In this document: positions 3,195 through 31,017 of the stretch, piece by piece
Layout: every line of letters starts with the position of its first letter
Position numbering within the stretch: the stretch's first letter is position 1
Assembly (NCBI GenBank): GCA_964631915.1
Contig: CAZWAS010000016.1
Span: 1 to 44,111 of the forward strand
Direction: 5' to 3'
DNA from: an uncultured Spirochaetales bacterium
GTDB taxonomy: Bacteria > Spirochaetota > Spirochaetia > CAZWAS01
DNA length: 44,111 nt
Translations under genes and position numbers: made by a program
The notes under the pieces: generated by a model
Told to the model about the DNA's origin: nothing
The model's input: the letters and a program-made list of their open reading frames with translations, nothing else
The model's database searches: none

Positions 3195-4556
3195 ATGTAT
3201 GATCTTCTCATCATAGGAGCAGGGCCAGCAGGGTATGTGGCAGGCATCCGCGCCGGCCAACTCGGTATGAAAACCGCTCTCATCGAAAAAGAGCACATAG
3301 GCGGCATGTGCGTGAATTGGGGCTGCGTTCCTCTCAAGGCGCTCATGCACAGCACCGACGTGCTCAGAACCGTCAGATCCGCAGCAGGAATCGGCATAGG
3401 GGGCATAGATGTTGATCGCCTCTGCTATGTGTGGAAGGATGCCGCACGCAGGGTGCAATCTGTTATCGCAGCAGTGACGTCGGGCATACATGAGCAACTG
3501 TTCAGGAACAGCGTGGAGCTCGTTCAAGGAGAGGCTCGAATTCTATCCGAGCATTCCGTGAGCGTTTCGAACAGAACGCTCGAGGCTTCATTCATGCTCA
3601 TCGCAACAGGTTCGATGCCCGGGAAGCTCCGGTTTCCGCTCCCCGAAGCGAAAACAGTTAGTCTGAATCGGCTGCTCTCACTCGAGACGCTCCCCGATCC
3701 TGCCGTTGTATACGGCAGTGGTCCGGTCGCAGTGGAACTGGCCCAATTCCTCGCAGGAACGGGGAATGAGGTGATCCTTCTGAGCGATGGAAAGCCCTTG
3801 TTGGCGAGTGCCGACGGGGCGATTTCCGCTTTCATGGAGAAGCGACTGAAGCAGGACGGCATACGCATACTGCAAGCGCAAGACAATATCGGGTTCAGGG
3901 ATGATCGGCTCATGGTGGCAGGAGAAGCGATCCTCTTCGACCGGCTGATACCGTGCGGCGCGAGGGAGGCTGTGCTGCCACCTTCGAATATCCCTTTCGA
4001 TACGGAAAACGGAGCTCTCGCTGTGAATGAATACCTGCAGACGAACTATGCGAATATCTATGCTGCAGGAGATGCAACAGGACGCAGTTTCCTCGCACAT
4101 GCCGCCTCGGCCCAGGGACTCTACACTGTGAATCGCATGAAGGGATTCAAGGAGCCCTATGTTTCGCAGAGCCAGCAACTCAATATGTACACGTATCCGG
4201 AGGTAGCCCAGATCGGGCTTACGGAGGAAAGTGTTGAGCAAGCCGGTTTTGAGTATGCGGTTGAAACGCTCCCCCTTGCCTCCAATGCGAAAGCGCTCAT
4301 AGAAGGGGACACCGAGGGATTCGTGCGTATCCTTTATGAGAAGCGCTTTGGAGAAGTGCTCGGCGTCCAGATCGTCGGCCTCCATGCCACGGATCTGATC
4401 GCAGAAGCGTCTGCAATTATGCAGGCCGAAGGAACTATTTACGATATAGCAAAGATAGTTCACGCCCATCCCACGGTTTCTGAAGTGTTCATGGGAGTCG
4501 GTTTCGGTGTAAAGGCGAAATCTCTGGATTTCTCGGAGAATCGAAAGGATTTCTAA
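3195..4556 (+). CDS. lpdA: Dihydrolipoyl dehydrogenase (E3)
   Basis: FAD motif IIGAGPAGY, redox disulfide CVNWGCVPLK and C-terminal HAHPTVSE. Confidence 0.9.
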   Translation: MYDLLIIGAGPAGYVAGIRAGQLGMKTALIEKEHIGGMCVNWGCVPLKALMHSTDVLRTVRSAAGIGIGGIDVDRLCYVWKDAARRVQSVIAAVTSGIHEQLFRNSVELVQGEARILSEHSVSVSNRTLEASFMLIATGSMPGKLRFPLPEAKTVSLNRLLSLETLPDPAVVYGSGPVAVELAQFLAGTGNEVILLSDGKPLLASADGAISAFMEKRLKQDGIRILQAQDNIGFRDDRLMVAGEAILFDRLIPCGAREAVLPPSNIPFDTENGALAVNEYLQTNYANIYAAGDATGRSFLAHAASAQGLYTVNRMKGFKEPYVSQSQQLNMYTYPEVAQIGLTEESVEQAGFEYAVETLPLASNAKALIEGDTEGFVRILYEKRFGEVLGVQIVGLHATDLIAEASAIMQAEGTIYDIAKIVHAHPTVSEVFMGVGFGVKAKSLDFSENRKDF

Positions 4557-4605: not shown

Positions 4606-4824
4606 ATGATACAGTACAAAGTGAAGGAAGGGTCGGGAGTCGATACCTACCTAGAAATCGTCAAAGAATACGAAGACGGCTTCGATGTTCTCATAATCTC
4701 GGTGTGTGATAATTACAAGAAAGAAACGACGGAATACATGAGCCGCAAGCTCCTCGAAACCTGCCTGAGGACAGGATATCTCCAAAAGCTCGACGATCTG
4801 TCCGCAGCGCTCATCAGTGCATGA
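4606..4824 (+). CDS. Hypothetical small protein (72 aa)
   Basis: GAGGGAGG RBS 4 nt before the ATG. The residue composition looks protein-like. No motif recognised. Confidence 0.5.
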   Translation: MIQYKVKEGSGVDTYLEIVKEYEDGFDVLIISVCDNYKKETTEYMSRKLLETCLRTGYLQKLDDLSAALISA

Positions 4825-5102: not shown

Positions 5103-5131
5103 TTGACACAAGTCGAAAAAAGCATTATTAT
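5103..5131 (+). promoter_or_regulatory. Sigma70-type promoter of the marR cluster
   Basis: TTGACA (5103-5108), 17-nt spacer, TATTAT (5126-5131). Confidence 0.5.
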
Positions 5132-5160
5132 TGCTATTAACAAATATTGCTAATAGCAAT
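5131..5160 (+). promoter_or_regulatory. Inverted-repeat operator candidate (MarR box) between the -10 and the marR start
   Basis: TTGCTATTA (5131-5139) and TAATAGCAA (5151-5159) are reverse complements. The nested 7-1-7 palindrome ATTGCTA-A-TAGCAAT lies at 5146-5160. Confidence 0.4.
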
Positions 5161-5163
5161 TAA

Positions 5164-5586
5164 ATGCGGAGCACCATGCGCATAAGTCTTATAGAAAGCA
5201 TACTCACCCTGAAAAGCAAATGTACGTTCGAAGAGGATATTGCTTCCAGATACGATCTCACGCCGAGGGAAGCCGCTTGCATCCACGAGCTTGGGAGATA
5301 TCCGGGCCTCACACCGTGCGAACTCTCGAAACATATGGCCCTTTCTCCTTCCAGGGGAAGTCGGATCATCGGTACGCTGCTGGAAAAAGGGTACATCGTG
5401 AGCGAACCTGTACCGGGCGACAGGAGAAGCGTGGTGCTTTCGCTTTCGCTGAAAGGGGATGCGTGCTACAAAGCGCTGGAAAAGGAGCGAGCTCTGTGCG
5501 AAAAAAAACTCAGGGACAAACTGACGGAAGAGCAGGCTCATTCCATACAGACGAGCATAGACACGCTCATCTCTCTCATCGAATAA
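5164..5586 (+). CDS. MarR-family transcriptional regulator
   Basis: 140 aa with a winged-helix pattern (LTPREAACIHEL...LTPCELSKHMALSPSRGSRIIGTLLEKGYI...PGDRRSVVLSLSLKG). An alternative start is ATG 5176 (GGAG upstream). Confidence 0.8.
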   Translation: MRSTMRISLIESILTLKSKCTFEEDIASRYDLTPREAACIHELGRYPGLTPCELSKHMALSPSRGSRIIGTLLEKGYIVSEPVPGDRRSVVLSLSLKGDACYKALEKERALCEKKLRDKLTEEQAHSIQTSIDTLISLIE

Positions 5587-5605
5587 CGCCAGAAAGGAGC
5601 TTGGT

Positions 5606-6259
5606 ATGAAAGAAATCACTGAAGCGGTCAACGCACGGTATTCCACTTTATCCGAATCATCGTGCTGCCTTTCCTGCGGAGGAGCCTCTGCGCTGAGCGC
5701 TCCGAAGGAAGGAGAGATCTGCGTGGATCTTGGGAGCGGCAGGGGAACGGATGTGATCCGGCTCGCGGATAAAGTAGGGGAGACAGGGTTCGTGATCGGC
5801 ATAGACGTGACCGACAGTATGCTGGAAAAAGCTCGACAGACTGCGCTGAAAATGGGAGTAAAGAATGTCGAGTTCCGCAAAGGCGAACTGGAGCAGCTTC
5901 CTGTCGAAGATGGAGTTGCGGATCTGGTTGTTTCGAATTGCACGATAAACCATGCTGTCGATAAAAAGGCTGTGTGGAAAGAGATTTTCCGGATTCTGAA
6001 AAAAGGCGGCAGGTTCGTGGTAAGCGACATCTATTCTCTCGAAAAGGTGCCGGAAGCATATGCGAACGATCCTGCAGCGGTCGCCGAATGCTGGGCAGGA
6101 GCGGTGGAAAAGGATGAATACCTCGCTACAGTACAGGATGCTGGATTCATAGGAATCGCAATCCTCGAAGAAAGCGCTCCGTATGAAAAGGGCGCCATTC
6201 GGGTTGCGAGTTTCACGATAAGCGGGAAAAAGGCGGCGGTTTGCTGCTGTTCACATTGA
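5606..6259 (+). CDS. Class I SAM-dependent methyltransferase, compact ArsM (arsenite methyltransferase)-like
   Basis: SAM motif VDLGSGRGTD. The cysteine layout matches ArsM (SSCCLSCGG upstream of the SAM motif, SNCTINH, ECWAGAVEKDEYL) and there is a C-terminal CCC tail. RBS AAAGGAG. Confidence 0.6.
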   Translation: MKEITEAVNARYSTLSESSCCLSCGGASALSAPKEGEICVDLGSGRGTDVIRLADKVGETGFVIGIDVTDSMLEKARQTALKMGVKNVEFRKGELEQLPVEDGVADLVVSNCTINHAVDKKAVWKEIFRILKKGGRFVVSDIYSLEKVPEAYANDPAAVAECWAGAVEKDEYLATVQDAGFIGIAILEESAPYEKGAIRVASFTISGKKAAVCCCSH

Positions 6260-6276
6260 GCCTAAGGAGGCGATAC

Positions 6277-6372
6277 ATGAAATCCCTCATCAGGAAAAAG
6301 TCGGTCATGGCGCAGAACACGGCCCAGTGCTGTGCGAAAACCTCGATCATCGTTGCAGGGTGCCACGACTGA
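6277..6372 (+). CDS. Unannotated 31-aa Cys-containing peptide (candidate RiPP precursor): MKSLIRKKSVMAQNTAQCCAKTSIIVAGCHD
   Basis: Below the ORF-track size cut-off. A perfect AAGGAGG sits 6 nt before ATG 6277. It lies 17 nt after the methyltransferase stop and is followed by a hairpin and then the rSAM/SPASM gene. Confidence 0.6.
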   Translation: MKSLIRKKSVMAQNTAQCCAKTSIIVAGCHD

Positions 6373-6380
6373 ACCTTTTC

Positions 6381-6410
6381 GCGCTGCGGTTCGGCCGCAG
6401 CGCGTTTTTT
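6381..6410 (+). terminator. Intrinsic terminator / attenuator hairpin between the peptide gene and the rSAM gene
   Basis: GCGCTGCGG-ttcgg-CCGCAGCGC (9-bp GC-rich stem) followed by G + T6. The RBS and ATG of the next gene start 11 nt later, with no room for a promoter. Confidence 0.7.
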
Positions 6411-6421
6411 AAAGAGGAGCT

Positions 6422-7738
6422 ATGCGTTTTTCCAAACACAACATACTAGGCAGGATCAAAGATTCGGGGTCGTATTTCATAGTCAATTGCCTGTCCGGCA
6501 ATGCGGATATCCTCACAGCGGAGAAGTATGAGGAAATTCTGAGCGGGAAATTGACGGACCTGGAAGAGTATGAAACCAAAGGTTATCTTATGGATGAGAA
6601 GGAGGAGGAAAGGCTGTACAGAAAGGCCTATGTGGATTTTCTCGATGCGCGCGAGCGGGATGAAGTGCAGCTTTTTTTTGTTCCGACGTACGATTGCAAT
6701 TTTGCCTGTGCGTACTGCTACCAATCCGCGTACGGGAACAAGCGGTCGGAGTGGAGTACAGAAGTAGCGGATGCATTTTTCGCTTACATCGAAGACGCAT
6801 TCTACGGGCGCAAGAGTTACATAACGCTGTTCGGCGGAGAACCGTTGCTGCCGGGAGAAATAAATAAGAAATATATAGAATATTTTTTGTTCGAGGCTGA
6901 GAAAAGAAGGCAACGGGTCGCCATAGTGACCAATGGCTATACTCTTTCCGAATTCAGTGGGATTCTTGATCCTAAGACTGTTAAAGAAATCCAAGTCACG
7001 CTCGACGGAACAAACGATACGCATAACGCACGAAGATTCTTGAAAGGAGGAGGTCCTACGTTTGATAAAATCGTGCAGGGTATCGACGATATGCTCGAAA
7101 AAGGAATACCGGTCAATCTCAGGGTTGTGCTCGACAAATCGAATATCGACGGCCTTCCGGAGCTTGCAAGGTTCGCAATACGAAAAAAGTGGACGGAAAA
7201 TTCTCATTTTAAGACCCAGCTTGGAAGAAATTACGAGCTTCATTTTTGCCAGAAAAACCCGGATGCGCTGTACGGCAGATTGGAACTGTATAAGGATGTT
7301 TACCTCCTCGTTCTGAAACATCCCGAGATACTCGAATTCCACCGACCTGCTTATTCCGTTTCGAAATTCCTTTTCGATAACGGCAGGTTGCCTGATCCTC
7401 TCTTCGATTCGTGCCCAGGTTGCAAGACCGAATGGGCCTTCGATTATACGGGGGCTATTTACTCCTGTACCGCGACTGTGGGTAAAACCGAAGAGCGGCT
7501 CGGCACATTTTTTCCAGCCGTGGAGCTGAAGGAAGATGCCGTACGAGAATGGCAGAATAGAGATGTCCTATCTATCCGGGAATGCAAAGACTGCCGGCTC
7601 GCGCTCGCCTGCGGGGGAGGATGTGCCGCTGTCGCGAAAAACAAAACAGGCGCCTTGAATTCGCCTGACTGCAGACCGGTACAAGAATTGCTTGAAATGG
7701 GAATATCCCTGTATTACGGGAAAGGAGAATACGTATGA
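6422..7738 (+). CDS. Radical SAM / SPASM-domain peptide-modifying enzyme with an N-terminal (RRE-like) extension
   Basis: CxxxCxxC at C92/C96/C99 (YDCNFACAYC). C-terminal SPASM signature: CPGC...GAIYSC and CKDCRLALACGGGC (Cx2Cx5Cx3C). About 90 aa precede the rSAM motif. Confidence 0.85.
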   Translation: MRFSKHNILGRIKDSGSYFIVNCLSGNADILTAEKYEEILSGKLTDLEEYETKGYLMDEKEEERLYRKAYVDFLDARERDEVQLFFVPTYDCNFACAYCYQSAYGNKRSEWSTEVADAFFAYIEDAFYGRKSYITLFGGEPLLPGEINKKYIEYFLFEAEKRRQRVAIVTNGYTLSEFSGILDPKTVKEIQVTLDGTNDTHNARRFLKGGGPTFDKIVQGIDDMLEKGIPVNLRVVLDKSNIDGLPELARFAIRKKWTENSHFKTQLGRNYELHFCQKNPDALYGRLELYKDVYLLVLKHPEILEFHRPAYSVSKFLFDNGRLPDPLFDSCPGCKTEWAFDYTGAIYSCTATVGKTEERLGTFFPAVELKEDAVREWQNRDVLSIRECKDCRLALACGGGCAAVAKNKTGALNSPDCRPVQELLEMGISLYYGKGEYV

Positions 7739-9018
7739 GCGGAAAGATAAAGGAAATAGATGCTTCTCAGTTCGAGAGCGAAGTATTAAAGGCGGATCGT
7801 GCAGTGGTGGATTTCTACTCCACCGAATGTCCTCCGTGCGAGGCGCTCGCTTCCAAATACGAAGGGCTGAGCGAGCTGTATGGGGACGACATCAAGTTCA
7901 TAAAGATATTCAGACAGGGCAACAGAGAGCTCGCTGAACACCTCGGGGTGACCGGTTCTCCGACGGTTCTGTTTTACAGAGGGGGAAAACCGGTCGGAGA
8001 AAGGCTTACAGGAGGAGTGAAGCGGGCTTCGCTTATGAAAAACTTAGACGAACTTCTCTCTCCCGAACGGGCGAAAGAGCTGAGAAGCGGAATCCGGCAG
8101 AAACGGACAGACTGCGATGTCCTCATACTCGGAGGAGGTCCTGCTGGGCTCACTGCAGGCATCTATCTCGCGCAAGCCCGGCTCGATACCGTCATAGTGG
8201 ACACGGCGCTTCCCGGCGGATATGTGGCTACTACACACCAGGTTTCCAATTATCCCGGTTTCGTGGAGCCGATTGCCGGGTATATGCTTGCGCACACGAT
8301 GTCCGAACAGGCGAAAAAAGCGGGTGTAAAATTCCGTTCTGCAGTGGACGTATCGGATATAGATTTCGAGAAGAAAGAAATCCTTATCGACGGAGTCGAG
8401 CGCATCCGAGGAAAGAAAATCGTCATAGCCACAGGTTCGACGCCGCGGCCTCTCGGTCTGAAAGGCGAGAAGGAATACAGGGGGAACGGGATTTCTTATT
8501 GCTCGACGTGCGACGCCAAGTACTTTTCAGACAGGGATGTTGTGGTGATCGGAGGAGGCAATTCGGCGATAGAAGAATCCCTTTTCATCGCGAAGTTCGC
8601 GAAGACTATAACGGTCGTGCATCAATTCGCCGAGCTTCAGGCGAACAAGCTCGCCCAGGAGAAAGCCTTTGCAGAAAAGAAAATACGGTTTCTTTTCGAA
8701 CACGAACCGCGGGAATTCATCCGCCACGGTTCCATGGATATGGAAGTCGTGGTGGAGGAATTGAGAACGGGAAACAGAAAGAGCCTCAGAACGAACGGAG
8801 TGTTCATATTCGTAGGTTTCGTACCGAACATCGGGGAGTTCAAAGAGGCTTTTACGCTCGACAAATGGGGGTATATCGTGACCGACGACGAGATGAGAAC
8901 GAATATCAAGGATGTATATGCCGTCGGAGACGTGAGAACCAAATCCTACAGGCAGATTACGACTGCCATTGCAGATGGAACCATAGCTGCGATCAGCATA
9001 GCGAAAGAATTGGGTTGA
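7735..9018 (+). CDS. Thioredoxin (N-terminal, CPPC) fused to a thioredoxin-reductase-like flavoprotein
   Basis: The start overlaps the rSAM stop (ATGA). The Trx fold has FYSTECPPCE and the cis-Pro loop GSPTV. The TrxR part has LGGGPAGLTAG, a CSTC redox pair and IGGGNSAIEE. VHQFAELQANK replaces the canonical HRRxxFRAxK. Confidence 0.85.
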   Translation: MSGKIKEIDASQFESEVLKADRAVVDFYSTECPPCEALASKYEGLSELYGDDIKFIKIFRQGNRELAEHLGVTGSPTVLFYRGGKPVGERLTGGVKRASLMKNLDELLSPERAKELRSGIRQKRTDCDVLILGGGPAGLTAGIYLAQARLDTVIVDTALPGGYVATTHQVSNYPGFVEPIAGYMLAHTMSEQAKKAGVKFRSAVDVSDIDFEKKEILIDGVERIRGKKIVIATGSTPRPLGLKGEKEYRGNGISYCSTCDAKYFSDRDVVVIGGGNSAIEESLFIAKFAKTITVVHQFAELQANKLAQEKAFAEKKIRFLFEHEPREFIRHGSMDMEVVVEELRTGNRKSLRTNGVFIFVGFVPNIGEFKEAFTLDKWGYIVTDDEMRTNIKDVYAVGDVRTKSYRQITTAIADGTIAAISIAKELG

Positions 9019-9061
9019 TGCGGACAAAGTCCGATGGTACTGTAATGCAAGGAGGATGCGT

Positions 9062-9226
9062 ATGGCACAGAAAGAGATTACACTGGCGGAATTCGCGGAT
9101 GAATTGAAAGTCAGACTGAAAAAGGGTAAGACAGTAGACTGCTGCAAGGAAGAGCTTCTGAAACTTGCAGATATCGTGAAGGAAAAAATCGGGAAGGAAA
9201 AAATAACGGTAAATTGGAAGGATTGA
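9062..9226 (+). CDS. Unannotated 54-aa Lys/Glu-rich protein with a vicinal Cys pair
   Basis: Below the track cut-off. AAGGAGG lies 6 nt before ATG 9062. Translation: MAQKEITLAEFADELKVRLKKGKTVDCCKEELLKLADIVKEKIGKEKITVNWKD. Confidence 0.45.
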   Translation: MAQKEITLAEFADELKVRLKKGKTVDCCKEELLKLADIVKEKIGKEKITVNWKD

Positions 9227-9257: not shown

Positions 9258-9286
9258 TTGACGTTTCCCACGTTCCCCCCTATGAT
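9258..9286 (+). promoter_or_regulatory. Sigma70-type promoter of the DUF485/symporter operon
   Basis: TTGACG (9258-9263), 17-nt spacer, TATGAT (9281-9286). It lies inside the track's extended ORF start, which argues for the ATG 9309 start. Confidence 0.55.
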
Positions 9287-18551: not shown

Positions 18552-18579
18552 CGAACTGGCGGATACACGGGAGGTGCGT

Positions 18580-20649
18580 ATGAAACTGCGAATGGGAGTA
18601 GATACCGGAGGAACGTTCACCGATTGTGTCGTTATAGACGAAAAGGGCACAATCCATACATTCAAAGAACTCTCGACTCCGAAAGATCCCTCCATCGGGC
18701 TTTACAATGTCATAAGGAAAGCCGCAGGGTATTTCAAAAAAGATCTGAGGAGCTTCCTGGGCGATCTAGATTTCTTCGCCCACGGTACTACCGTTGCGAC
18801 GAATACTCTTCTTACAGGAACCGGAGCCAAGACGGGATTGATCCTTACAAAGGGTTTCCGCGACACGCTTGAAATGCGGAGGGCTCATAAAGAGAACATA
18901 TGGGACCTGTATCTTCCTGTTCCTTCTCCCCTGGTTCCTCGCTATCTCAGGCTAGGAGTCACAGAGCGGATCGATTATAAAGGTGATATTATACAGCCTC
19001 TTGTAGAAGAGGATGTATACAGGATCTGCGAGTTTTTCAAAAAAGAGCAGGTGAAAGCCGTTGCAATCTGTACGCTGTTTTCCTTTCTCAACGATACGCA
19101 CGAAAAGCGGATACGGGACATCGTGGCCAAAGAAATGCCTGACGCGTTCATATCCATATCTTCCGAAGTTCTTCCACAGATACGCGAATATGAACGTATG
19201 TCGACTACCGTATCGAACGCGTATGTCGGTCCGAAACTCACCGTGTATCTTTCCACGCTCGAAAAAAAACTCAAGGATGACGGACTAAAGCGGGCATTTT
19301 ATATCACCGCTTCGAACGGCGGCGTTATGACCGCCGAAACCGCCATAAGGCACGCTTCAGCCACGCTGCTCTCTGGCCCTGCCGCCGGAGCAGTAGGAGG
19401 CATGTTCTTCGCCGACCTTCTTAAACGCGGGAATCTGATCATTATGGACATGGGCGGAACCTCTTTCGATGTCACATTAGTGAGCGGAGGCAAGGTCACC
19501 CTCAGTACAGAAGGGGAGATAGCCCGGTACAGAGTCGCGAAACCCATGATAGACATCAACACGATCGGAGCAGGCGGAGGTTCCATAGCGTGGATCGATT
19601 CAGGCGGTATGCTCAAGGTGGGACCCGCCTCTGCAGGATCGGATCCCGGGCCTGTGTGCTACGAATTGGGAGGTACGAAGCCTACGGTTACGGATTCCAA
19701 CCTCCTGCTCGGATACCTCGACAAGGATTATTTCCTCGGCGGCGAGATGAAGGTGAACGAGGAGAAGACACGAGAGGCCATGAGGCGGGAAATCGCGGAT
19801 CCGCTCGGTATTTCCGAAACGGAGGCTGCATCCGGCATTTTCAGGATCATCAATCAGAGCATGGCGGATGCGACAAAGGTCGTATCCGTACAGCGGGGGC
19901 ACGATCCGCGCGAATACGCATTGGTGAGCGCCGGAGGGGCCTGTTCCATACACGCATGCAAGATCGCCGAAGAGGTGGGATCTGAATGCGTCATAGTACC
20001 AAAGGCAGCGAGCGTGTTCTGCGCCTTGGGGATGCTCGAATCCGACATCAGGCTCGACAATGTGAAAACGTATAACGCGTTCATACCCGGAATAGATCTT
20101 GCGGATTTCAATGCGGTCATCGAAGCAGTGGAAAAGCAGGCGCTCAAGGAACTTCTGCAGGAAGGAGTCGAACGGGAACGGGCCCACCTGGTCCGGTATC
20201 TCGATATCCGCTATGTCGGACAACACCATGAGGTGACTGTCGAGATTCCTGCAGGATGCAGACTCGAGGACAAGCATCTTTCGATCATCGCCGACGCTTT
20301 CCACAAGGCGCATGAAAGGCTCTACACGTATTCTACGCCAGAGAATCCCCTCGAAGTGATGAATCTCAGGATCACTGCAGTGGGTTCTGTGGATAAGACC
20401 GGCCTCTTCGAGATTGCAGCGAGTTTGTCCGATCCTTCAGCCGCATACAAAGGAAAACGGAAGGTCTATTTCGAAGAGAAAAACGGATTCTTCGAAGTAC
20501 CCGTATACAATAGGGATCTGCTCAAGCCGGGTAATAGAATACCCGGCCCTGCGGTCATAGAAGAGCGCATCACCACCATCATCGTCCATCCGAAATGGGA
20601 TTCCTTTGTGGACAGCTATCAGAATATCATCATGGAGGTGAGGAAGTGA
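18580..20649 (+). CDS. hyuA: Hydantoinase/oxoprolinase family, A subunit (ATP-dependent)
   Basis: N-terminal GVDTGGTFTD, later DMGGTSFD. About 690 aa. Start at ATG 18580 after GGGAGG. Confidence 0.85.
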   Translation: MKLRMGVDTGGTFTDCVVIDEKGTIHTFKELSTPKDPSIGLYNVIRKAAGYFKKDLRSFLGDLDFFAHGTTVATNTLLTGTGAKTGLILTKGFRDTLEMRRAHKENIWDLYLPVPSPLVPRYLRLGVTERIDYKGDIIQPLVEEDVYRICEFFKKEQVKAVAICTLFSFLNDTHEKRIRDIVAKEMPDAFISISSEVLPQIREYERMSTTVSNAYVGPKLTVYLSTLEKKLKDDGLKRAFYITASNGGVMTAETAIRHASATLLSGPAAGAVGGMFFADLLKRGNLIIMDMGGTSFDVTLVSGGKVTLSTEGEIARYRVAKPMIDINTIGAGGGSIAWIDSGGMLKVGPASAGSDPGPVCYELGGTKPTVTDSNLLLGYLDKDYFLGGEMKVNEEKTREAMRREIADPLGISETEAASGIFRIINQSMADATKVVSVQRGHDPREYALVSAGGACSIHACKIAEEVGSECVIVPKAASVFCALGMLESDIRLDNVKTYNAFIPGIDLADFNAVIEAVEKQALKELLQEGVERERAHLVRYLDIRYVGQHHEVTVEIPAGCRLEDKHLSIIADAFHKAHERLYTYSTPENPLEVMNLRITAVGSVDKTGLFEIAASLSDPSAAYKGKRKVYFEEKNGFFEVPVYNRDLLKPGNRIPGPAVIEERITTIIVHPKWDSFVDSYQNIIMEVRK

Positions 20650-22403
20650 AATCCGAAAGAAAAAAAGAGTTTGAAGGCGCGAACGATCCCATAACCCTTT
20701 CAGTCATCTACAATCGGCTTCTCACCATCAACCAGGAAATGGGAATAACCATGATCAACACCTCCATTTCCCCCATTTTCGCGGAGGTACACGATTTTTC
20801 CTGCGCCATCTGCGATTGGGACAACAGGATAGTGGCTCAAATCGACGGCGTGCCGTCGCATACTGCTTCCGCTATGGAAGCAGTGAAGGCCATAAGCAGG
20901 GAATTCAAAGGCGACATACATCCAGGGGATGTGTTCGTGCTGAACGATCCGTATCTCGGAGGAACCCACTTGCCCGATGTCACGATCATGAAGCCGATAT
21001 TCTTTGACGGCGAACTCCAGTTCATAGCGATCAACAGAGCTCACCACGGGGATGTCGGAGGCATAGAGCCGGGCTCTTACGCGCCGAGCGCAAGGGAGCT
21101 TTTTCATGAAGGCATACGGATTCCGCCGCTCCGCATTTACAAGAATGAGAAACCCATCATGGATGTGGTAAACATGATCAGGATCAACACGCGGATGCCT
21201 GATGCATTATGGGTCGACATGAAGGCCCAAGTCGCATCGTGCAGGGTTGCGGAAAAGCGCATCATAGAGCTGATTTCCAAGTACGGCGTTGCGAAAACCC
21301 GCGCTACCGTGGAGGATATCCATCTGTATGCGGAACGCAGAATGCGCAAGGAAATCGAAAAGCTCAAAGACGGCGTATACGAAGGGGAAGTTTTCCTCGA
21401 TTCGGACGGTTTTTCCGATAATCCGATCAGGATCAAAGTCAGCATTACGGTGAAGGGCGACGAGGCGTTCGTCGATTTCTCAGGATCCGATCCTCAGGTA
21501 ACGGGCTTTGTCAATTCGCCCATGGCGAACACCGCCACCTGTGTGTACGTCGCATTCCTCACCACGGTGACGACGCCGGACATTCCGCATAACGAGGGAG
21601 TATATCGGCCAATCCATATAACGGCTCCGGAAGGTTCCGTCGTTAATCCGCGATTTCCCGCTCCCGTAGCTTCCTGTACGCTCGATACCGCATGTGCGAT
21701 TCTCGAAGCCTGTTGGATCGCATTGTCAAAGGTGCTTCCCGAACGGGTACCCGCCGGATGGAACCGATGGAACGGACCCACGATCACGGGTATAGATCCG
21801 CGGAATAACAATTTTTATGTCATGTTTGGATTCAACGGATTCGGCGGGGCCGGAGGCATGCCTGGCATGGACGGCAGGCATTATATAGGAGACGGCATAG
21901 ATTTGGGCGGCCTCATAGCGCCGAACATCGAAACGAACGAAAAGGATTATCCGCACATCACGGAGTTCAACGAGTTTACGATGGATTCCTGCGGCGCGGG
22001 AAAATTCCGAGGCGGATGCGGAGCGAAATACAGGCTGAAGGTCTACGACGAGTCTCCAACCCTTGTCATGTTCGGCGACGGGAAAAAGAATCCGCCGTAC
22101 GGGTTGTTCGGGGGACAACCGGGTTCGTGCAACAAAGCGTTTATCAACGAAGGTATGCCTTCCGAGCGGGAACTGAAAGCTAAAGAGTCGGTGGTTCTCG
22201 CAAAAGGCGATACCTATACTTCGTACCCGTCGGGCGGTGGCGGTTGGGGAAATCCGAAAGAACGCGATCCGGAGCTGGTGCGAATGGACGCCAGAAACGA
22301 AATCATTTCCCGCGAAAGCGCGGAGAAGCTCTACGGCGTCGCTCTCGAAGGCGATGATTACCGTATCAATCTGGAAAAAACTAAATTCTTGCGGAGCAAA
22401 TGA
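20646..22403 (+). CDS. hyuB: Hydantoinase/oxoprolinase family, B subunit
   Basis: The GTG start overlaps the hyuA stop (GTGA). N-terminal DPITLSVIYNRL, NDPYLGGTHLPD. Confidence 0.85.
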   Translation: MKSERKKEFEGANDPITLSVIYNRLLTINQEMGITMINTSISPIFAEVHDFSCAICDWDNRIVAQIDGVPSHTASAMEAVKAISREFKGDIHPGDVFVLNDPYLGGTHLPDVTIMKPIFFDGELQFIAINRAHHGDVGGIEPGSYAPSARELFHEGIRIPPLRIYKNEKPIMDVVNMIRINTRMPDALWVDMKAQVASCRVAEKRIIELISKYGVAKTRATVEDIHLYAERRMRKEIEKLKDGVYEGEVFLDSDGFSDNPIRIKVSITVKGDEAFVDFSGSDPQVTGFVNSPMANTATCVYVAFLTTVTTPDIPHNEGVYRPIHITAPEGSVVNPRFPAPVASCTLDTACAILEACWIALSKVLPERVPAGWNRWNGPTITGIDPRNNNFYVMFGFNGFGGAGGMPGMDGRHYIGDGIDLGGLIAPNIETNEKDYPHITEFNEFTMDSCGAGKFRGGCGAKYRLKVYDESPTLVMFGDGKKNPPYGLFGGQPGSCNKAFINEGMPSERELKAKESVVLAKGDTYTSYPSGGGGWGNPKERDPELVRMDARNEIISRESAEKLYGVALEGDDYRINLEKTKFLRSK

Positions 22404-24660: not shown

Positions 24661-26685
24661 ATGGGGCTCGTGAACCTTGAAACAGGAGAAGAACAGCACT
24701 ACTCACTTCGGGAACTCGAAGAGTTCGCGAAAAGGATGCGGGCCCTCGATCTTGTGAGTATCCACGCTGCCGGTTCGGGACATCCGGGCGGGACTCTTTC
24801 TGTCATGGATATCGCCGCTGTCCTGTATCTCGACGAAGTGCGGTACAACCCACAGAATCCGAAATGGGACGGCAGGGATAGAGTATTCTTTTCCGCAGGG
24901 CACAAGGCTCCTGCTATGTACGCAGCGTTGGTGGAAGCAGGGTATTTCAGCGCGGAAGAAGTTGTGACGCTTAGAAAGATTGGAAGTCCCTTCCAAGGAC
25001 ATCCTCATGCTCCGGCTTTGCGGGGTATCGAAGTCTCGAGCGGATCCCTCGGTCAGGGTCTGGGTATCGCGGTCGGCTGCGCTCTTTCCGCGAAGATGAG
25101 CGGAAAAAGTTTCAGGGTGTACTGCGTTATGGGGGACGGCGAGCAGCAGGAAGGAAGCATCTGGGAGGCTGTCATGGCTGCGGCCCATTACGGGCTCGGC
25201 AATCTTTGCGCCATCATAGATAAGAATAAGCTCCAAATCGACGGATCGGTCAAGGATGTGATGAACCTCGACCCCATTGCCGAAAAGTATAGGGCATTCG
25301 GCTGGAATGTGGTGGAGACGGACGGTCACAGCATAGCCGCGATCAAGGAAGCTTTCGCCGAAGCGCGAAAGGCTGTAGGAAAACCGACCGTGATAATCGC
25401 CGAGACCATAAAAGGGAAGGGTGTATCCTTCATGGAGAACCAAGCGGGGTGGCACGGTGTCGCAACCAATTCGAGAGAACAGCTCGCTTCAGCGTTGAAG
25501 GATGTCGGATGCGCCGACTTTTCCCCTGAACGTGTCGACTATCTACTCGCCAAGGCCGCGGTGCATCAGAAACAGCAAGAAGAAAGCCTGAAGAAGGCGC
25601 TTCCTGTATTTTCGAAGGATTATTGGTGGAACGCCGGCCAGGATATGAAAGTGGATATGGTGCCGAATAGATTCGGATTCGGTGCCTGCCTTGCAAAGAT
25701 AGGCGACGATCCGAGGATCGTGACTATCCATGCCGATATCTCTCAGTCCATCAAGATTTCGGATTTTGAAAAGGATCATCCGGAACGAAAGACACGGGTG
25801 GTCAGTGTGGGTATAGCGGAACAGAACATGATGAGCGTCGCCGCCGGTCTTGCGCTCGAAGGGAAAATTCCGATAACAGGGACATACGGCGTATTCGCTG
25901 CAGGGAGACCCTGGGATCAGATTCGCACGACGATTTGCTACGACAAGCTGAACGTAAAAATCGCGGGAGCTCACGGAGGCATATCGGTAGGACCTGACGG
26001 AGCCACGCATCAGGCTCTTGAAGAACTAAACCTCATGACCGTGCTTCCCAATATGACATTCGTAGCCCCTTGCGATTCGCTGGAGGCGGAGCGACTTACC
26101 CGCATTTCGATTCTGGAAAAGGAAGGCCCTGTGTACATCAGGCTCGCCCGCGAGGCGACCCCTGTGGTTACGGACGAAAAAACCCCTCTCGTTCTGGGCA
26201 AAGCCAATATTGTACGCTACCGGCGTCGTTCCAACAGGTTCAAAGATGCGTTCGATGTTCTGCTCGCTTCCGATTACCGCAACGAACACGAAGATATAAC
26301 GATCATTTCCTGCGGCCCTCTGCTTTGCGAAGCAATGCGGGCCGCGTACATACTATCGGATGAGTTTGGCATAGAGGCGCGGGTGATCAACATGCATACG
26401 ATTAAACCGCTCGACGAAGAGGCGGTGGTGCGCGCATGTTCCGAAACTCGGGCGATACTCACCTGTGAGGAACATCAGAAAGGGGGGCTCGGCAATTTGG
26501 TGGCGGGAGTCGTGTGCAGAAACAAGGCGATCGATGCGCCGTTTGTTCTGGACATGATAGGCATCGAAGACAGGTTTGGAGAATCCGGAGGTCCCTGGGA
26601 GCTGATGATTAAGTTCGGTCTTACGGCCGAACATATTGTTGTAAAGGCCAAGGAATTGGTACAAAGGAAGAATGGGAGGCATTGA
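24661..26685 (+). CDS. Transketolase-family ThDP enzyme, single-chain fusion of the split N- and C-terminal type
   Basis: GSGHPGG and GDGEQQEG...IDKN (ThDP motif). A linker of about 60 aa joins these to the Pyr/C-terminal half (GIAEQNM, GPDGATHQ). Confidence 0.8.
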   Translation: MGLVNLETGEEQHYSLRELEEFAKRMRALDLVSIHAAGSGHPGGTLSVMDIAAVLYLDEVRYNPQNPKWDGRDRVFFSAGHKAPAMYAALVEAGYFSAEEVVTLRKIGSPFQGHPHAPALRGIEVSSGSLGQGLGIAVGCALSAKMSGKSFRVYCVMGDGEQQEGSIWEAVMAAAHYGLGNLCAIIDKNKLQIDGSVKDVMNLDPIAEKYRAFGWNVVETDGHSIAAIKEAFAEARKAVGKPTVIIAETIKGKGVSFMENQAGWHGVATNSREQLASALKDVGCADFSPERVDYLLAKAAVHQKQQEESLKKALPVFSKDYWWNAGQDMKVDMVPNRFGFGACLAKIGDDPRIVTIHADISQSIKISDFEKDHPERKTRVVSVGIAEQNMMSVAAGLALEGKIPITGTYGVFAAGRPWDQIRTTICYDKLNVKIAGAHGGISVGPDGATHQALEELNLMTVLPNMTFVAPCDSLEAERLTRISILEKEGPVYIRLAREATPVVTDEKTPLVLGKANIVRYRRRSNRFKDAFDVLLASDYRNEHEDITIISCGPLLCEAMRAAYILSDEFGIEARVINMHTIKPLDEEAVVRACSETRAILTCEEHQKGGLGNLVAGVVCRNKAIDAPFVLDMIGIEDRFGESGGPWELMIKFGLTAEHIVVKAKELVQRKNGRH

Positions 26686-28004
26686 TGGGAAAAGTAAGAA
26701 TTGTCCATTACATAAACCAGTTCTTCGCAGGTATCGGAGGAGAAGAGAAAGGCGGCTCTCCTTTGGAATTCTGCGAAGGGCCGAAAGGTCCCGGCATCGG
26801 ACTTACCCAGCTCATGGGTGCTGATGCCGAGATCGTACGTACGATCTGGTGCGGGGACAACCTCATAAATCAGGAACAGGAAAGAATCCTCAAAGACATC
26901 GAGAAACTTATCTTAGAAGCAAAACCCGATGTCGTGGTAGCTGGTCCCGCCTTCAACGCGGGTCGATACGGGCTTGCGTGCGGCATGGTGAGCAAATTGT
27001 GCACCGAAACGCTCAAAATACCCGCATTGACGGGGCTTTACCCTGAAAATCCTGCTGTGGAAATATACCGAAAGGATGCGTATATCTATCCCTGTTCAGA
27101 GACCGCCGCAGGCATGAGAAAGGATCTTCCCGGTCTCGCTAAGCTCGCAGTGAAGCTCGGCAAAGAGGGGAAGCTTGGACCTGCGAACATCGACGGATAC
27201 ATACCGCGCGGATACAGGTACAACGAATTCCTGGAAAAAAGCGCAGCGGAACGCTCGATCGCCATGCTCATGTCGAGGCTTCAGAACGGAAATCCGATAA
27301 CCGAAATACCGCTTCGGGGTTTCGAGCAGGTTTCTCCTGCTCCTCCGCTGAGGAATTTGAAGGAAGCGACTATTGCCATCGTCACCGGCGGAGGCATGGT
27401 TCCGAAGGGAAATCCGGATAAACTGAAACAGGCGTTTGCCGATTCCTTCGGTATCTACTCGATAGAGGGAATGACAGAGCTTCCCTCTGGCGATTTCAAA
27501 GGAATCCACGGCGGGTTCGATTCCACGTGGGTCGATCAGGATCCCGATCGGGTGGTGCCTGTGGATGTTCTCAGGGCAATGGAGAAGGAAGGCAAGTTCA
27601 AAAAACTGTTGAACGAATACTTCGCGTTGTGCGGCATCGGAACGAATGTTGCGATGAGCAAGAAGCTTGGTGCCGAGATAGCGGAGGAGCTTAAAAGAAG
27701 GGAGGTTTCAGCAGCTATTTATACCTCCACCTGAGGAACCTGTACTCGTTGCGTGTCAACGATGCAGAAAGAAGCCGAAAGAGTCGGCATCCCTTCGGCC
27801 CTTATAACGGCAATCCCTTCGGTCGCGAAATCTGTAGGAGTGAGCAGAATAATCACGGGCGGAGGAATTCCCTATCCGGTCGGAAACCCTTCCATGCCGC
27901 CCGACCGCGAACTGGAGTTCAGAAGACGTCTTGTAGAAAAAGCGTTGGAAGCGATTTCTTCGGAAATCAAGGAACCTACCGTTTTCAACGTGACCGTAGC
28001 CTGA
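26685..28004 (+). CDS. GrdB/GrdF/GrdH-family selenoprotein B (substrate-specific reductase subunit), with Sec encoded by in-frame UGA 27732-27734
   Basis: Track ORFs 26682..27734 and 27753..28004 are in one frame. The join reads IYTST-U-GTCTRCVSTMQKE, the family's U-x2-C-x2-C motif. N-terminus KVRIVHYINQFFAGIGGEEK. The start overlaps the transketolase stop (TGATG). Confidence 0.85.
27732..27734 (+). other. In-frame UGA selenocysteine codon (GrdB-like)
   Basis: Its position corresponds to the conserved Sec of selenoprotein B. The reading frame continues for 90 more codons of conserved sequence. Confidence 0.8.
27746..27762 (+). promoter_or_regulatory. Candidate bacterial SECIS hairpin
   Basis: UCGUUG-cgugu-CAACGA (6-bp stem) begins 12 nt after the UGA. 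The apical loop contains G and U, and the loop starts about 20 nt from the UGA. Confidence 0.45.
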
Positions 28005-28022
28005 GGATAAGAGGGGAATGCA

Positions 28023-29333
28023 ATGAAACTGGAACGCGGATATTTTACCATAAAGGACCTCCGTTTCGGGAATGGAACACATCTCGAAAACGGAATTCTT
28101 ACAATTAACAAAACGGAATTGAAAAACCATCTTCTGAAGGAAGATGTGAACAAAAACATACGGTCTCTCGAACTGGAAATCGTGAAACCGGGCGAAGACG
28201 CGAGAATCGTGCATGTGCTCGACACAGTGCAGGTCGGCGTGAAAGTGGAAGGCGAAGGAGAGTTCATGCCCGGCCACCTCTGCGATCCGACCATAGTAGG
28301 CAGCGGCAAGACGCATCTCATCACCAACCTTGCGGTCATGGAATGCGCGGAGCTTCCATGGGCCGGCAAATCGAGTCTCCTCTACGCAAGAGACGCCATA
28401 GTAGATATGGTCGGCCCTGCAGCCGGTTACTCTCCTTTTTCGCAGACGTTCAATCTCGTTCTGAGAATGGAGATGAAGGATGGCGCGAGCGATGTGGAAT
28501 ACGATGAGTCCGTCCGACAAGCTGGAATACAATGTTCCCGCTTTCTCGCGGAATTGATAAAGAATAAGACGCCGGATACATCGGAACTATTCGACTTTTC
28601 CCAAGAAGTCGATCCGTCATTGCCGAAAATCGCATATGTAACCCAGTGCCAGAACCAAGGAACCTATTCCAATACGTTCTTGTACGGAAAGGAAGTGAGC
28701 AACATTGTTCCTTACAACCTCAGTCCTACCGAAGTGATGGACGGCTGCATCGTGAGCGGCAATTATGTGTGGCCTTGTTTCAAAATTCCTTCCTTCATTC
28801 AGGCCAATCTGCCTGTGGTTATGGAACTTTCAAGGCAGCACGGCAAAACCGTCAATTTCGTGGGCGTCATCTTCGACCGAGGACATAACCACTCCCATTT
28901 CGAAAAGATGCGGGTTGCGAACATGGCGGCTGCTCAGGCGAGGAGGTTAGGGGCTCAGGGGGTGGTAATCTCGTGGGAAGGCGGCGGGAACGCCGCTACG
29001 GATGCCATGCTTACTATCCAAAGGTGCGAACGATGGGGTATAAAGGCAGTAGCATTCACCTTCGAGTTCGGCGGACCGGACGGTACGGAAGGGGTGCTTC
29101 TCGTGGATGATGTCCCTGAAGCGAAGTATCTCGTTTCTTCGGGATCTATTGAAAAACCTACCACGATCCCGAAAGTGAAACGGGTGGCAGGCGGAGACGT
29201 GCTTAGACTGCGCAAAGAGACAGGCGGTGCTCCGGAACCTGCAGATGTGGAACGCACGCTCGATAACATAACGCCGTTTTACTGTGGCGCAAACCAGAGC
29301 GGAATAGGAAGACTTGCGGGAGTGGGATACTAG
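28023..29333 (+). CDS. GrdE/GrdG/GrdI-family reductase subunit (proprotein-type partner of selenoprotein B)
   Basis: 436 aa. N-terminal pattern FTIKDLRFGNGTHLENGILTINK, mid-protein PTEVMDGCIVSGNY, C-terminal ...GVGY. RBS AGAGGGG. Confidence 0.75.
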   Translation: MKLERGYFTIKDLRFGNGTHLENGILTINKTELKNHLLKEDVNKNIRSLELEIVKPGEDARIVHVLDTVQVGVKVEGEGEFMPGHLCDPTIVGSGKTHLITNLAVMECAELPWAGKSSLLYARDAIVDMVGPAAGYSPFSQTFNLVLRMEMKDGASDVEYDESVRQAGIQCSRFLAELIKNKTPDTSELFDFSQEVDPSLPKIAYVTQCQNQGTYSNTFLYGKEVSNIVPYNLSPTEVMDGCIVSGNYVWPCFKIPSFIQANLPVVMELSRQHGKTVNFVGVIFDRGHNHSHFEKMRVANMAAAQARRLGAQGVVISWEGGGNAATDAMLTIQRCERWGIKAVAFTFEFGGPDGTEGVLLVDDVPEAKYLVSSGSIEKPTTIPKVKRVAGGDVLRLRKETGGAPEPADVERTLDNITPFYCGANQSGIGRLAGVGY

Positions 29334-29338
29334 GAGCA

Positions 29339-30520
29339 ATGCTCATGGAAGGAAAAGTCTTCGATATTATCATTGTTGGTGCGGGAACAGCGGGGTTTTC
29401 CGCAGGCATATACGGCGCCAGGGCCAAGCGGTCCACGCTCATACTCGACAAAAAGCGGCCGGGAGGCCAGGCTTCCACCACCGAAGTCATGGAGAATTAT
29501 CCTGGCTTCCCCGGCAGCATAGGCGGCAGGGAGCTCATGGATCGCTTCAGAGAACATGCGACGGAAATGGGCGCGGGCATCGAAAAGGCCGAAGTCACGG
29601 GATTTTCCGAAGAAAATGGCGTATACCTCGTGCACACAAAAGAGACGACGGTATACAGAGCCAAAAGTCTCATACTCGCCCCCGGCTGCGAACCGCGCAG
29701 GCTTGGTATTCCGGGGGAAAAGGAATTCTCCGGAAGTGGGGTGTCCTATTGTGCGACCTGCGATGCAGAGCTCTATGAAGGAGCGAAGGTTGTGGTCGTA
29801 GGAAGCGGAGACACCGCTGTGGAGGAGGCAAATTTCATAAGCAGGTTCGCCGAAGAAGTGATCATGATCGTGGTCCACGACGAGGGCGTGCTCGACTGCA
29901 ACAAGACCATGGCGGAAACCGCTTTGTCGAATCCGAAGCTCACATGGAAATGGAACAGGTCCATACTCTCTATCGAGGGAAAGGACGCCGTGGAAGGAGT
30001 GAAACTTAAGAACCTGAGGACAGGAACCGAAGAACAGGTCAGCTGTGACGGAGTGTTCATCTTCGTGGGTACCATCCCGCAGACCGGATTCATTGGCGAT
30101 TTTGTGGCCATGAGGAACGGTTTCATCGTTACGGACGACAAAATGGAAACCAACCGGCCCCTCGTCTATGCAGCCGGGGATGCGAGAGTGAAGGCGCTGC
30201 GTCAGGTGGTGACCGCCGCATCCGACGGAGCCATAGCCGCTTTTTTCGCGGACAAATCTTTAACCGAAATGGAAGAATTCGCGAAATCGGTCAAGAGGGC
30301 AGGGAAAGAATATCTACTATATTTTTATTCCCCGCCGGTGCAGATAAGCCTGGAGCTTTTCCCGGATGTCGAACGGAAAGCGGAAAAACTTGGTATTTCG
30401 CTTATAAAGTTGGATACGTTCAGATACAGAACCATAGCCGATAAATACGGTGTCAGTTCGGTTCCGCACCTCGTGCGTATAGAGGACGGTATCCTGAAAG
30501 AAGTTATACAGATAAACTAA
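29339..30520 (+). CDS. Thioredoxin-reductase-like flavoprotein with a C-terminal redox-dead thioredoxin-fold domain
   Basis: [17 protein letters not shown] redox pair, [22 protein letters not shown] replaces HRRxxFRAxK. The C-terminal ~85 aa are Trx-like ([10 protein letters not shown] where CxxC is expected; SSVPHLV cis-Pro loop). Alternative start ATG 29345. Confidence 0.8.
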
Positions 30521-30539
30521 GACAGAGGAGGTGATGCGA

Positions 30540-31001: not shown

Positions 31002-31017
31002 AACGGAGAGATTTGTA

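Follow-up and report, generated by a model that had tools for sequence, protein, structure and literature searches.

The stretch of DNA considered here (the window) is 44,111 nucleotides (nt) long and belongs to contig CAZWAS010000016.1 of an uncultured Spirochaetales bacterium; between positions 5103 and 9226 it carries a compact cluster of six genes, all on the + strand, coding in this order for a MarR-family regulator, a small S-adenosylmethionine (SAM) methyltransferase of the ArsM type, a cysteine-containing peptide of 31 amino acids (aa), a radical SAM (rSAM)/SPASM protein, a fusion of thioredoxin (Trx) with thioredoxin reductase (TrxR), and a 54-aa protein with a vicinal pair of cysteines. 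According to the listing of open reading frames (ORFs) and to direct reading of the sequence, the successive gaps between these genes are 19, 17, 49, -4 and 43 nt. The same-strand order of the six genes, the gaps, a promoter and a palindrome in front of them, the CX3CX2C and SPASM cysteine motifs of the rSAM protein and a 31-aa ORF led by a Shine-Dalgarno (SD) sequence had all been reported in an earlier note on this DNA, and all of them are borne out. Judging from sequence comparisons, the core of this module is made of four genes only, those for the methyltransferase, the peptide, the rSAM/SPASM protein and the Trx-TrxR fusion; the module is of the kind that yields peptides made on the ribosome and altered post-translationally (RiPPs), and its rSAM protein is similar to the maturase CteB but falls outside every curated maturase family. 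Neither the gene combination nor the peptide motif is described in Pfam (2025), in NCBIfam (June 2026) or in the literature searched, including that on RiPPs and arsenic and on DUF1847.

Conservation of the Four-Gene Core

Homologues of the rSAM protein number in the thousands; the best 120, which were examined, are 57–62% identical to it and belong to widely differing phyla. When one genome per species was scanned, at least 477 matching loci were obtained, 80 of which were kept for comparison (their numbers are preceded by L in what follows); they come from Bacteroidota, Spirochaetota, Ignavibacteria, Myxococcota and other "delta" lineages, Brevinema, Marinamargulisbacteria and others, and at least one carrier is a cultured species, Spirochaeta isovalerica. 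The presence of each gene was assessed by tblastn with the proteins of the window. The methyltransferase gene is found upstream of the rSAM gene in 68 of 70 loci and the peptide gene likewise in 68 of 70, while the Trx-TrxR gene lies within 4 kb of it, usually downstream, in 65 of 69; all four genes are within 4 kb in 55 of the 61 fully flanked loci, and in 51 of these 61 they follow one another on one strand in the strict order methyltransferase-peptide-rSAM-reductase. All four proteins are about 55–68% identical across these lineages. A small ORF is thus conserved beside the rSAM gene, a point on which the earlier interpretation of the locus as a RiPP system depended; as to the accessory set, which had been called unusual, the ArsM-like methyltransferase and the Trx-TrxR fusion prove to be integral to the module across phyla, whereas the MarR regulator and the 54-aa protein are lineage-specific.

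The Precursor-Like Peptide

The peptide gene (6277–6372, + strand) starts with an ATG preceded, at a distance of 6 nt, by AAGGAGG, and codes for MKSLIRKKSVMAQNTAQCCAKTSIIVAGCHD, in which three parts can be recognized: a leader, MKSLIRKK, a variable linker, and a core, AQCCAKxSxxxxGCHD, extending up to the stop codon. Across loci the start MKSL(I/V)KK is conserved, the Lys-rich linker varies and at times carries an extra CC or CxC, and the core, in the form AQCC[A/S/T]Kx[S/T]xxxxGCHD-stop, recurs in 74 loci distributed over several phyla, always at the very end of the peptide. Over these 74 loci the core is encoded by 73 distinct DNA sequences; at the invariant residues no synonymous codon is missing, and each of the three stop codons occurs. 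Because the core is invariant while the synonymous codons vary freely, the 31-aa ORF is a real, constrained gene, and the comparison provides strong evidence that the peptide is translated and under purifying selection.

A profile search, begun with a 47-aa homologue as its first row, retrieved 1506 peptide clusters from a database of 5.8 billion proteins; the best 120 are 31–48 aa long and none of them is functionally named, and the 31-aa peptide has no match in Pfam or NCBIfam. Each locus carries one precursor copy, and neither Gly-Gly nor any other cleavage site is conserved among the homologues. No selenocysteine variants of the peptide were found; the only locus without a tblastn match, L078, has a frameshifted copy (positions 5700–6010 of that locus), with MKSLIRKK... 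and ...VAQCCAKISKMRPGCHD-stop in different frames, which reflects either a misassembly or a decayed gene.

The Radical SAM/SPASM Protein

The rSAM protein (6422–7738, + strand; 438 aa) matches Pfam Radical_SAM over residues 87–252 (E = 2.2e-20) and begins with a domain, spanning residues 1 to about 80, similar to a RiPP recognition element (RRE). The cysteines C92-x3-C96-x2-C99 and C388-x2-C391-x5-C397-x3-C401 are conserved at 98–100% among 61 homologues, C92, C96 and C99 being invariant; in the same set, the further cysteines C276, C331, C349 and C417 are conserved at 95% or more, which is enough for two auxiliary clusters, and C334 at only 69%, a weaker conservation that would agree with an iron site left open, as it is in CteB. 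The Pfam SPASM model gives no score at E≤0.01 on this protein; the SPASM assignment is made because of the cysteine motif and of a fold that can be superposed on those of CteB and anSME, both SPASM enzymes. The best match in the PDB of the AlphaFold2 (AF2) model (pLDDT 92) is CteB (E = 7e-18, TMq 0.63–0.67), followed by anSME, ChlB, SuiB and SkfB, and the N terminus, whose pLDDT is 93 or higher over residues 1–80, is composed of strands 7–11, 18–22 and 27–31 and helices 33–41, 47–53 and 59–79, that is, the RRE architecture; the match to CteB, which itself contains an RRE, runs over the full length and agrees with this assignment. On the evidence of the model, the protein is built like a peptide maturase that depends on an RRE.

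The nearest NCBIfam families are CefB, TIGR04463, Clo7bot, PapB and the geopeptide, nif11-type and SCIFF maturases, but all 25 listed NCBIfam matches remain below their curated cutoffs, the best one scoring 161.6 against 600 bits. The view put forward in the earlier note, that the protein is a peptide maturase and not a sulfatase or cofactor maturase, is upheld by these profile searches, whose best neighbours are RiPP maturases, as well as by the fold match with CteB and by the RRE-like domain. A role like that of anSME in the conversion of Cys to formylglycine was considered and appears unlikely, since the corresponding model gives 62.7 against 349 bits, no sulfatase motif or gene was found, and anSME has no RRE. 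The protein would bind the leader MKSL(I/V)KK and modify the invariant core, a thioether being the most likely product by analogy with its nearest characterized relatives. In the plasmid collection it matches only Bacillus rSAM proteins with 28.6% identity, with no sign of plasmid carriage there.

With CteB (the SCIFF maturase), PapB, QhpD and the sactisynthases the protein shares the RRE-like N terminus, the CX3CX2C core, a SPASM region with the cysteines for two clusters and a small Cys peptide encoded just upstream; it differs from them in its low identity to CteB (about 18% in the structural alignment), in its scores on the SCIFF and PapB models (89 against 425 and 106 against 340 bits, respectively), in the distinct and invariant core AQCCAKxSxxxxGCHD of its presumed substrate, and in having an ArsM-type methyltransferase and a Trx-TrxR fusion as constant partners. 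CefB (NF038107, the Cys-every-fifth maturase) is matched over its full length (residues 1–432 to model positions 1–431 of 444, E = 2.7e-47), but the best bit score given above is the one obtained on this model, that on TIGR04463 is 140 against 525, and the peptide does not have the Cys-every-fifth pattern. The systems PqqA/PqqE and MftA/MftB/MftC are similar in that an RRE and an rSAM-SPASM enzyme act on the C-terminal residues of a tiny conserved peptide, intracellularly and with no exporter; in contrast to those of pyrroloquinoline quinone (PQQ) and mycofactocin, the module has no peptidase or downstream tailoring set and its core is based on cysteines, while the mycofactocin model gives 57 against 265 bits and PqqE comes only at rank 50 in the fold search with the rSAM model.

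The ArsM-Type Methyltransferase

The gene at 5606–6259 (+ strand) encodes a compact SAM methyltransferase of 217 aa, which is matched by the arsenite methyltransferase model NF008823 (E = 4.6e-61). Its cysteines are arranged in the motifs CCLSCGG, C39, SNC112 and EC162W and in a C-terminal poly-Cys tail; in a phmmer comparison with CmArsM (E = 3e-25), C24, C112 and C162 align with Cys72, Cys174 and Cys224, and the upstream pair C20/C21 would be Cys44-like by position, though not by alignment. Among the 120 closest homologues CCLSCGG, C39, C112 and C162 are conserved at 99–100%, with C20/C21, C24, C112 and C162 at 100%, and every one of the 120 ends in a Lys-rich poly-cysteine tail of the type KKPSxCCC (e.g., KKPSGCCC). 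The 13 best PDB matches of the AF2 model (pLDDT 88) are all As(III) methyltransferases (ArsM/AS3MT), with identities of 29–35%, the best one superposing with a root-mean-square deviation of 2.3 Å and TMq 0.75. By its model and its alignments, the enzyme has the ArsM fold, the As-binding domain and the cysteines. Two side observations may be recorded here: the tail resembles the Lys-rich linker and the CC motif of the peptide, and many 215-aa homologues are labelled "arsenite methyltransferase" by JGI and "methyltransferase domain-containing protein" by NCBI.

In the ArsM family, four conserved cysteines define the enzymes, As(III) is preferentially used as its tri-thiol conjugate, and each turnover leaves a catalytic disulfide that is reduced by thioredoxin (PMC6138428); these needs for substrate and reductant are matched in the module by a three-Cys peptide and a dedicated Trx-TrxR, which such an enzyme would require in organisms free of glutathione. 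The likeness to ArsM/AS3MT therefore extends from the fold of the SAM- and As-binding domains, with the invariant equivalents of Cys72, Cys174 and Cys224 and the invariant upstream CC, to the need for a thioredoxin system (PMC6138428), which the fused Trx-TrxR would meet. The differences concern the size of the enzyme (217 aa, compared to about 280–400 aa), the spacing of the first two cysteine motifs, which is shorter by about 25 residues, and the genetic context, which is outside ars operons and not under ArsR, with a ribosomal Cys-peptide and an rSAM protein invariably encoded alongside.

The pairing of an rSAM protein with an ArsM-family methyltransferase is known from the arsinothricin route, in which ArsL is the rSAM partner (arsQML; PMC8552651; bioRxiv 10.1101/2024.02.01.577332), and from ArsS/ArsM, and this genetic pairing is what the module shares with them. 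Unlike the rSAM protein of the module, ArsL and ArsS are not SPASM/RRE maturases, have no peptide and are encoded in clusters within ars operons; moreover, the methyltransferase of the module scores only 113 against 500 and 75 against 400 bits on the models for these pairs (NF040538 and NF038099).

The Thioredoxin-Thioredoxin Reductase Fusion

The fourth core gene (7735–9018, + strand) encodes a 427-aa protein consisting of a Pfam Thioredoxin domain (residues 5–105) and a Pyr_redox_2 domain (128–415), with the folds for binding FAD and NAD(P)H, and its start overlaps the stop of the rSAM gene (ATGA); the redox motifs CPPC (32, 35) and CxTC (256, 259) are invariant in 60 homologues. On TIGR01292 the protein reaches 307.2 bits against a cutoff of 343.45, below the equivalog level. 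Fusions of the NTRC and AhpF-like types similarly unite in one polypeptide a Trx-fold domain with a CxxC motif and the CxxC of a low-Mr TrxR; the fusion of the module differs from them in that its Trx domain is N-terminal and carries CPPC, in its scores (307 against 343 on TIGR01292, 214 against 503 on AhpF), and in that it is dedicated to the module, its gene being conserved next to the rSAM gene and translationally coupled with it. A stand-alone TrxR is encoded elsewhere in the window (29339–30520), within the glycine reductase cluster described below; with a separate TrxR in the genome, that of the module would be a second, dedicated reductase and not a general housekeeping enzyme.

A rearranged version of the module was observed in L071 and L072, which belong to a branch whose rSAM proteins are 39% identical: the rSAM gene is on one strand and the rest on the other, and the fusion is split into a separate Trx (128–186 aa) and TrxR (323 aa), on the same strand as the methyltransferase and peptide genes.

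Transcription and Its Control

A sigma-70-type promoter, TTGACA-17-TATTAT, with 11 of 12 consensus matches, is found on the + strand at 5103–5131. Since promoter-like sites across the whole region show no excess over shuffled sequence, the evidence for this promoter consists of its position and of its conservation in other loci; indeed, a TTGAC(A/T) hexamer precedes the operator boxes in the majority of other MarR-bearing loci (e.g., L001, L007, L009, L014, L017, L031, L039, L083). The putative operator, which has no strand of its own, consists of two 13-bp palindromic boxes 16 bp apart, TTGCTATTAACAA at 5131–5143 and TTGCTAATAGCAA at 5147–5159; both were recognized as inverted repeats, a perfect 7-1-7 repeat at 5146–5160 lying within a 14-nt one at 5130–5160. 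One to three boxes of the form TTGYnnnnnRCAA occur in 11 of 11 MarR-bearing loci between the promoter region and marR, mostly in tandem at the same spacing of 16 bp; there are three copies in L014, the exact box of the window is found in two loci, and in L001, L006, L007, L009, L014, L017, L020, L031, L039 and L083 the boxes are some 20–80 nt upstream of marR. A metagenome-assembled genome of the Myxococcales is among the loci with such boxes.

The regulator itself (5164–5586, + strand; 140 aa; Pfam MarR_2, E = 1.4e-12) has a winged-helix MarR domain, and the predicted palindromic operator overlaps its promoter. It is present in about 10 of the 80 loci of the genome scan and in L083, that is, in Spirochaetota-type loci and one Myxococcales locus, directly upstream of the methyltransferase gene. 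Two of its cysteines, C20 and C111 in the numbering of the window, are invariant among 10 homologues, which suggests a thiol-based sensor.

Between the stop codon of the peptide gene and the SD sequence of the rSAM gene, at 6380–6410 on the + strand, the terminator scan detects a hairpin of 11 bp, nine of them G-C, followed by T6 (folding energy -25.7 kcal/mol, z = -2.9), with the appearance of an attenuator-like partial terminator. Of 69 other loci, about 32, from different phyla, carry a comparably strong hairpin with a T-run 3' of the peptide gene (L001, L002, L005, L006, L011, L019, L035, L041, L045, L046, L058 and L061 among them). With the methyltransferase and peptide genes placed before the hairpin and the rSAM and reductase genes after it, the transcripts of the first two would be more abundant. 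A second promoter-like site, TTGACG-17-TATGAT (10 of 12 matches), was noticed at 9258–9286, between the gene for the 54-aa protein and a DUF485/ActP pair, and would mark the 3' boundary of the transcription unit.

Accessory Proteins and Genomic Surroundings

The last gene of the cluster (9062–9226, + strand) encodes a 54-aa protein with the motif (D/N)CCK(E/D/Q)E and a C-terminal WKD; position 9062 is the likelier start, because the ATG at 9056 abuts the SD sequence. The protein has no match in Pfam or NCBIfam, and homologues, in which the CC motif and the C-terminal WKD are always kept, lie beside the module in about six loci (including L006, L014, L031, L061 and L083). Vicinal CC pairs recur in this protein, in the peptide and at both ends of the methyltransferase, and look like a relay for soft metals or metalloids.

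A Pfam census was made of 135 ORFs located within about 3.8 kb of the module across loci: Thioredoxin was counted 15 times, DUF1847 11, MarR 10, DUF302 and an IS1595-type zinc ribbon eight each, Rhodanese four and DUF5714 three, with thioredoxins, DUF1847, DUF302 and rhodanese considered enriched. No family of proteases, peptidases or ABC exporters is among the 25 commonest in this census, in line with the claim of the earlier note that the cluster includes neither a protease nor an ABC exporter, as would be expected of a product that stays within the cell. The core genes form an island amid unrelated genes in two complete contexts.

Several optional partners can be recognized within or beside the module, namely a DUF1847 protein (L004, L006, L011, L014, L017, L019, L032, L034, L052, L066), a DUF302 protein (L005, L010, L018, L023, L026, L027, L054, L066, L078), a small membrane protein of DUF6132-like type carrying a GCxSGxC motif (L002, L005, L021, L045, L057, L067) and, in the most divergent branch (L073, L075, L077), a DUF5714 protein, related to the model of the "metal-binding double selenoprotein MbdU"; extra thioredoxins, rhodaneses and fusions of coenzyme A (CoA)-disulfide reductase with rhodanese complete the set.

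In the window, the module is followed downstream by the DUF485 and ActP genes. Upstream, a MerA-like flavoprotein (3195–4556) was considered as a possible part of the module and discarded, being the E3 component of an adjoining E1alpha/E1beta/E2/E3 2-oxoacid dehydrogenase operon and not being conserved beside the module; a 72-aa ORF at 4606–4824, between the E3 gene and the promoter of the module, has no match in Pfam or NCBIfam. Farther away, a glycine/sarcosine/betaine reductase cluster (26682–33913) contains two in-frame TGA codons fitting selenocysteine, one in GrdB (...YTST-TGA-GTC..., TGA at 27732–27734, a UxxC motif) and one in GrdA (...CFV-TGA-TSAG..., TGA at about 30663–30665, a CxxU motif), which implies that the organism decodes UGA as selenocysteine. 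Finally, a hydantoinase/caprolactamase-like alpha/beta pair (18574–22403; CapA- and CapB-type, below cutoff), which has a GntR regulator and a DHDPS-family gene as neighbours, is unrelated to the module.

Proposed Function and Alternative Explanations

The reading that we tentatively favour is that a cytoplasmic, rSAM-matured tri-thiol peptide works together with the ArsM-type enzyme and the reductase in the chemistry of soft metalloids or of thiols, peptide-assisted handling and methylation of a metalloid being its preferred form. According to this proposal, the operon would be driven by a single promoter and, in the lineage of the window, a MarR-type repressor is predicted to bind the tandem TTGYn5RCAA boxes, while the attenuator-like hairpin would set the methyltransferase and the peptide above the rSAM protein and the Trx-TrxR. 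The rSAM enzyme would bind the MKSL(I/V)KK leader via its RRE-like domain and act on the AQCCAKxSxxxxGCHD core, most probably installing a Cys-to-carbon thioether as in CteB, PapB and QhpD and leaving at least two free thiols. Neither cleaved nor exported, the matured peptide would be a multi-thiol carrier taking the role that As(GS)3 has for canonical ArsM, and would hand a soft trivalent metalloid, with As(III) as the best candidate and Sb, Se or Te as possible ones, to the compact methyltransferase; the latter would contribute all four catalytic cysteines and its own CC(C) tail. In every cycle, the disulfides of methyltransferase and peptide would be re-reduced by the Trx-TrxR at the expense of NAD(P)H, whereas the 54-aa CC protein, the extra thioredoxins, DUF1847, DUF302 and rhodanese may be optional helpers in relay or redox reactions. 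The interpretation, given in the earlier note, of the methyltransferase as an ordinary peptide-tailoring enzyme is probably not correct, given that the metalloid-binding and redox cysteines of ArsM are kept; an intracellular redox or metalloid role of the product, which it also considered, stands as a proposal.

Several observations weigh against a metalloid function. The score of the methyltransferase on NF008823 (206.7 bits) does not reach the cutoff of 263 and covers model positions 58–233 of 272, and the enzyme is devoid of the ArsM C-terminal domain; none of ArsR, Acr3/ArsB, ArsC, ArsA and ArsD is found by Pfam/NCBIfam in the 25 commonest flank families or in the window ORFs scanned; the regulator is of the MarR and not of the ArsR type, and its two cysteines would fit the sensing of oxidants or electrophiles equally well; a radical SAM modification is not obviously needed if the peptide only carries a metalloid; and the relatives on which the thioether assignment is based are only 15–18% identical in structural alignments.

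Some of these same observations lead to a plausible, if doubtful, alternative, namely that the module serves thiol redox balance or the response to oxidative or electrophile stress, the matured peptide being a redox cofactor or a small protein thiol that Trx-TrxR keeps reduced, as glutathione and mycothione reductases do with their substrates, with the two-Cys MarR sensing oxidants and the methyltransferase tailoring the cofactor or detoxifying reactive sulfur or selenium species. The absence of ars genes from the commonest flank families, the place of the Trx-TrxR among the core genes and the invariance of the peptide core across phyla, closer to that of the cofactor precursors PqqA and MftA than to bacteriocins, all agree with it, as does a neighbourhood rich in thioredoxins, OsmC, CoA-disulfide reductase-rhodanese fusions and SQR-like proteins; flanking matches to the AhpC/TSA family also agree, though they are largely the same ORFs as those with a thioredoxin fold. 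The MarR protein retains two cysteines, as 2-Cys OhrR-type sensors also do. What this alternative leaves unexplained are the four ArsM cysteines, conserved at 100% and with no role in SAM binding, and it would need a peptidase to excise a small cofactor, which is not found; the second TrxR in the glycine reductase cluster is neutral between this and the metalloid reading. That the locus specifies a conventional exported RiPP, in which the rSAM enzyme installs ranthipeptide or sactipeptide thioethers, the peptide itself receives methyl groups on S, N or O from the methyltransferase, the role of Trx-TrxR is limited to providing the maturase with reduced cysteines, and unlinked proteases and transporters release a product acting on other cells, seems to us unlikely. 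The combination of an rSAM/SPASM enzyme with an RRE, a CteB-like fold and a Cys-peptide would be as expected, methyltransferases are common tailoring enzymes, and the precursor gene is followed by a partial terminator, which is the classic layout of RiPP loci; however, the 135 flanking ORFs show no enrichment of proteases, ABC transporters or immunity genes, no Gly-Gly or comparable cleavage site is conserved, each locus has a single precursor copy, the methyltransferase conserves cysteines specific to ArsM, and the core is invariant from Bacteroidota to Spirochaetota and Myxococcota, unlike fast-evolving antimicrobial peptides.

A bolder version of the arsenic hypothesis, which must be considered very improbable, is that the three peptide cysteines hold As(III) while a carbon radical, generated by the rSAM enzyme on a nearby residue, attacks the arsenic to give a C-As bond; the peptidyl arsenical would next be methylated by the ArsM-type enzyme, much as ArsM acts after ArsL on the way to arsinothricin. 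Pairs of rSAM and ArsM-family enzymes do make C-As compounds, as in the case of arsinothricin (PMC8552651; bioRxiv 10.1101/2024.02.01.577332), and the model for the arsenosugar pair ArsS/ArsM, NF038099, is weakly matched by the methyltransferase; furthermore, the ArsM cysteines are kept and three invariant thiols are the preferred set of ligands for As(III) (PMC6138428). This version is, on the other hand, pure inference: peptide C-As bonds have no precedent, the rSAM protein is a canonical SPASM/RRE maturase similar to ArsL and ArsS only at the superfamily level, and there is no ars context, nor any arsN/arsQ-type gene for efflux or self-resistance, among the 25 commonest flank families. As for a chance arrangement of unrelated neighbours around a 31-aa ORF that is not a gene, the abundance of spurious short ORFs in such lists and the lack of a database family for the peptide might speak for it; it has, however, next to no probability, being refuted by the 74-locus core with its 73 DNA sequences, by the 1506 peptide clusters and by the gene order kept in 51 of 61 loci.

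Implications

The module is large in its distribution and phylogenetically broad, with at least 477 species-level genomes and some 1500 peptide clusters, and is widespread in bacteria of anoxic environments. Its peptide represents a new family of RiPP precursors whose core, invariant across phyla, suggests a function inside the cell, of a housekeeping or cofactor-like nature, and not warfare. With four small genes and at least one cultured carrier, Spirochaeta isovalerica, the module is testable. If an arseno-peptide were formed, it would represent a third route to C-As chemistry based on an rSAM and an ArsM enzyme, and the first on a RiPP scaffold, with a peptide-borne arsinothricin-like group. 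Given the label "arsenite methyltransferase" used by JGI, surveys of anoxic soils and sediments probably include the enzymes of the module in their arsM counts; should it be true that they need a matured peptide and a reductase, or that they act beyond arsenic, arsM surveys would need to be re-read, and this could bear on the frequent failure of arsM-carrying anaerobes to methylate arsenic in culture.

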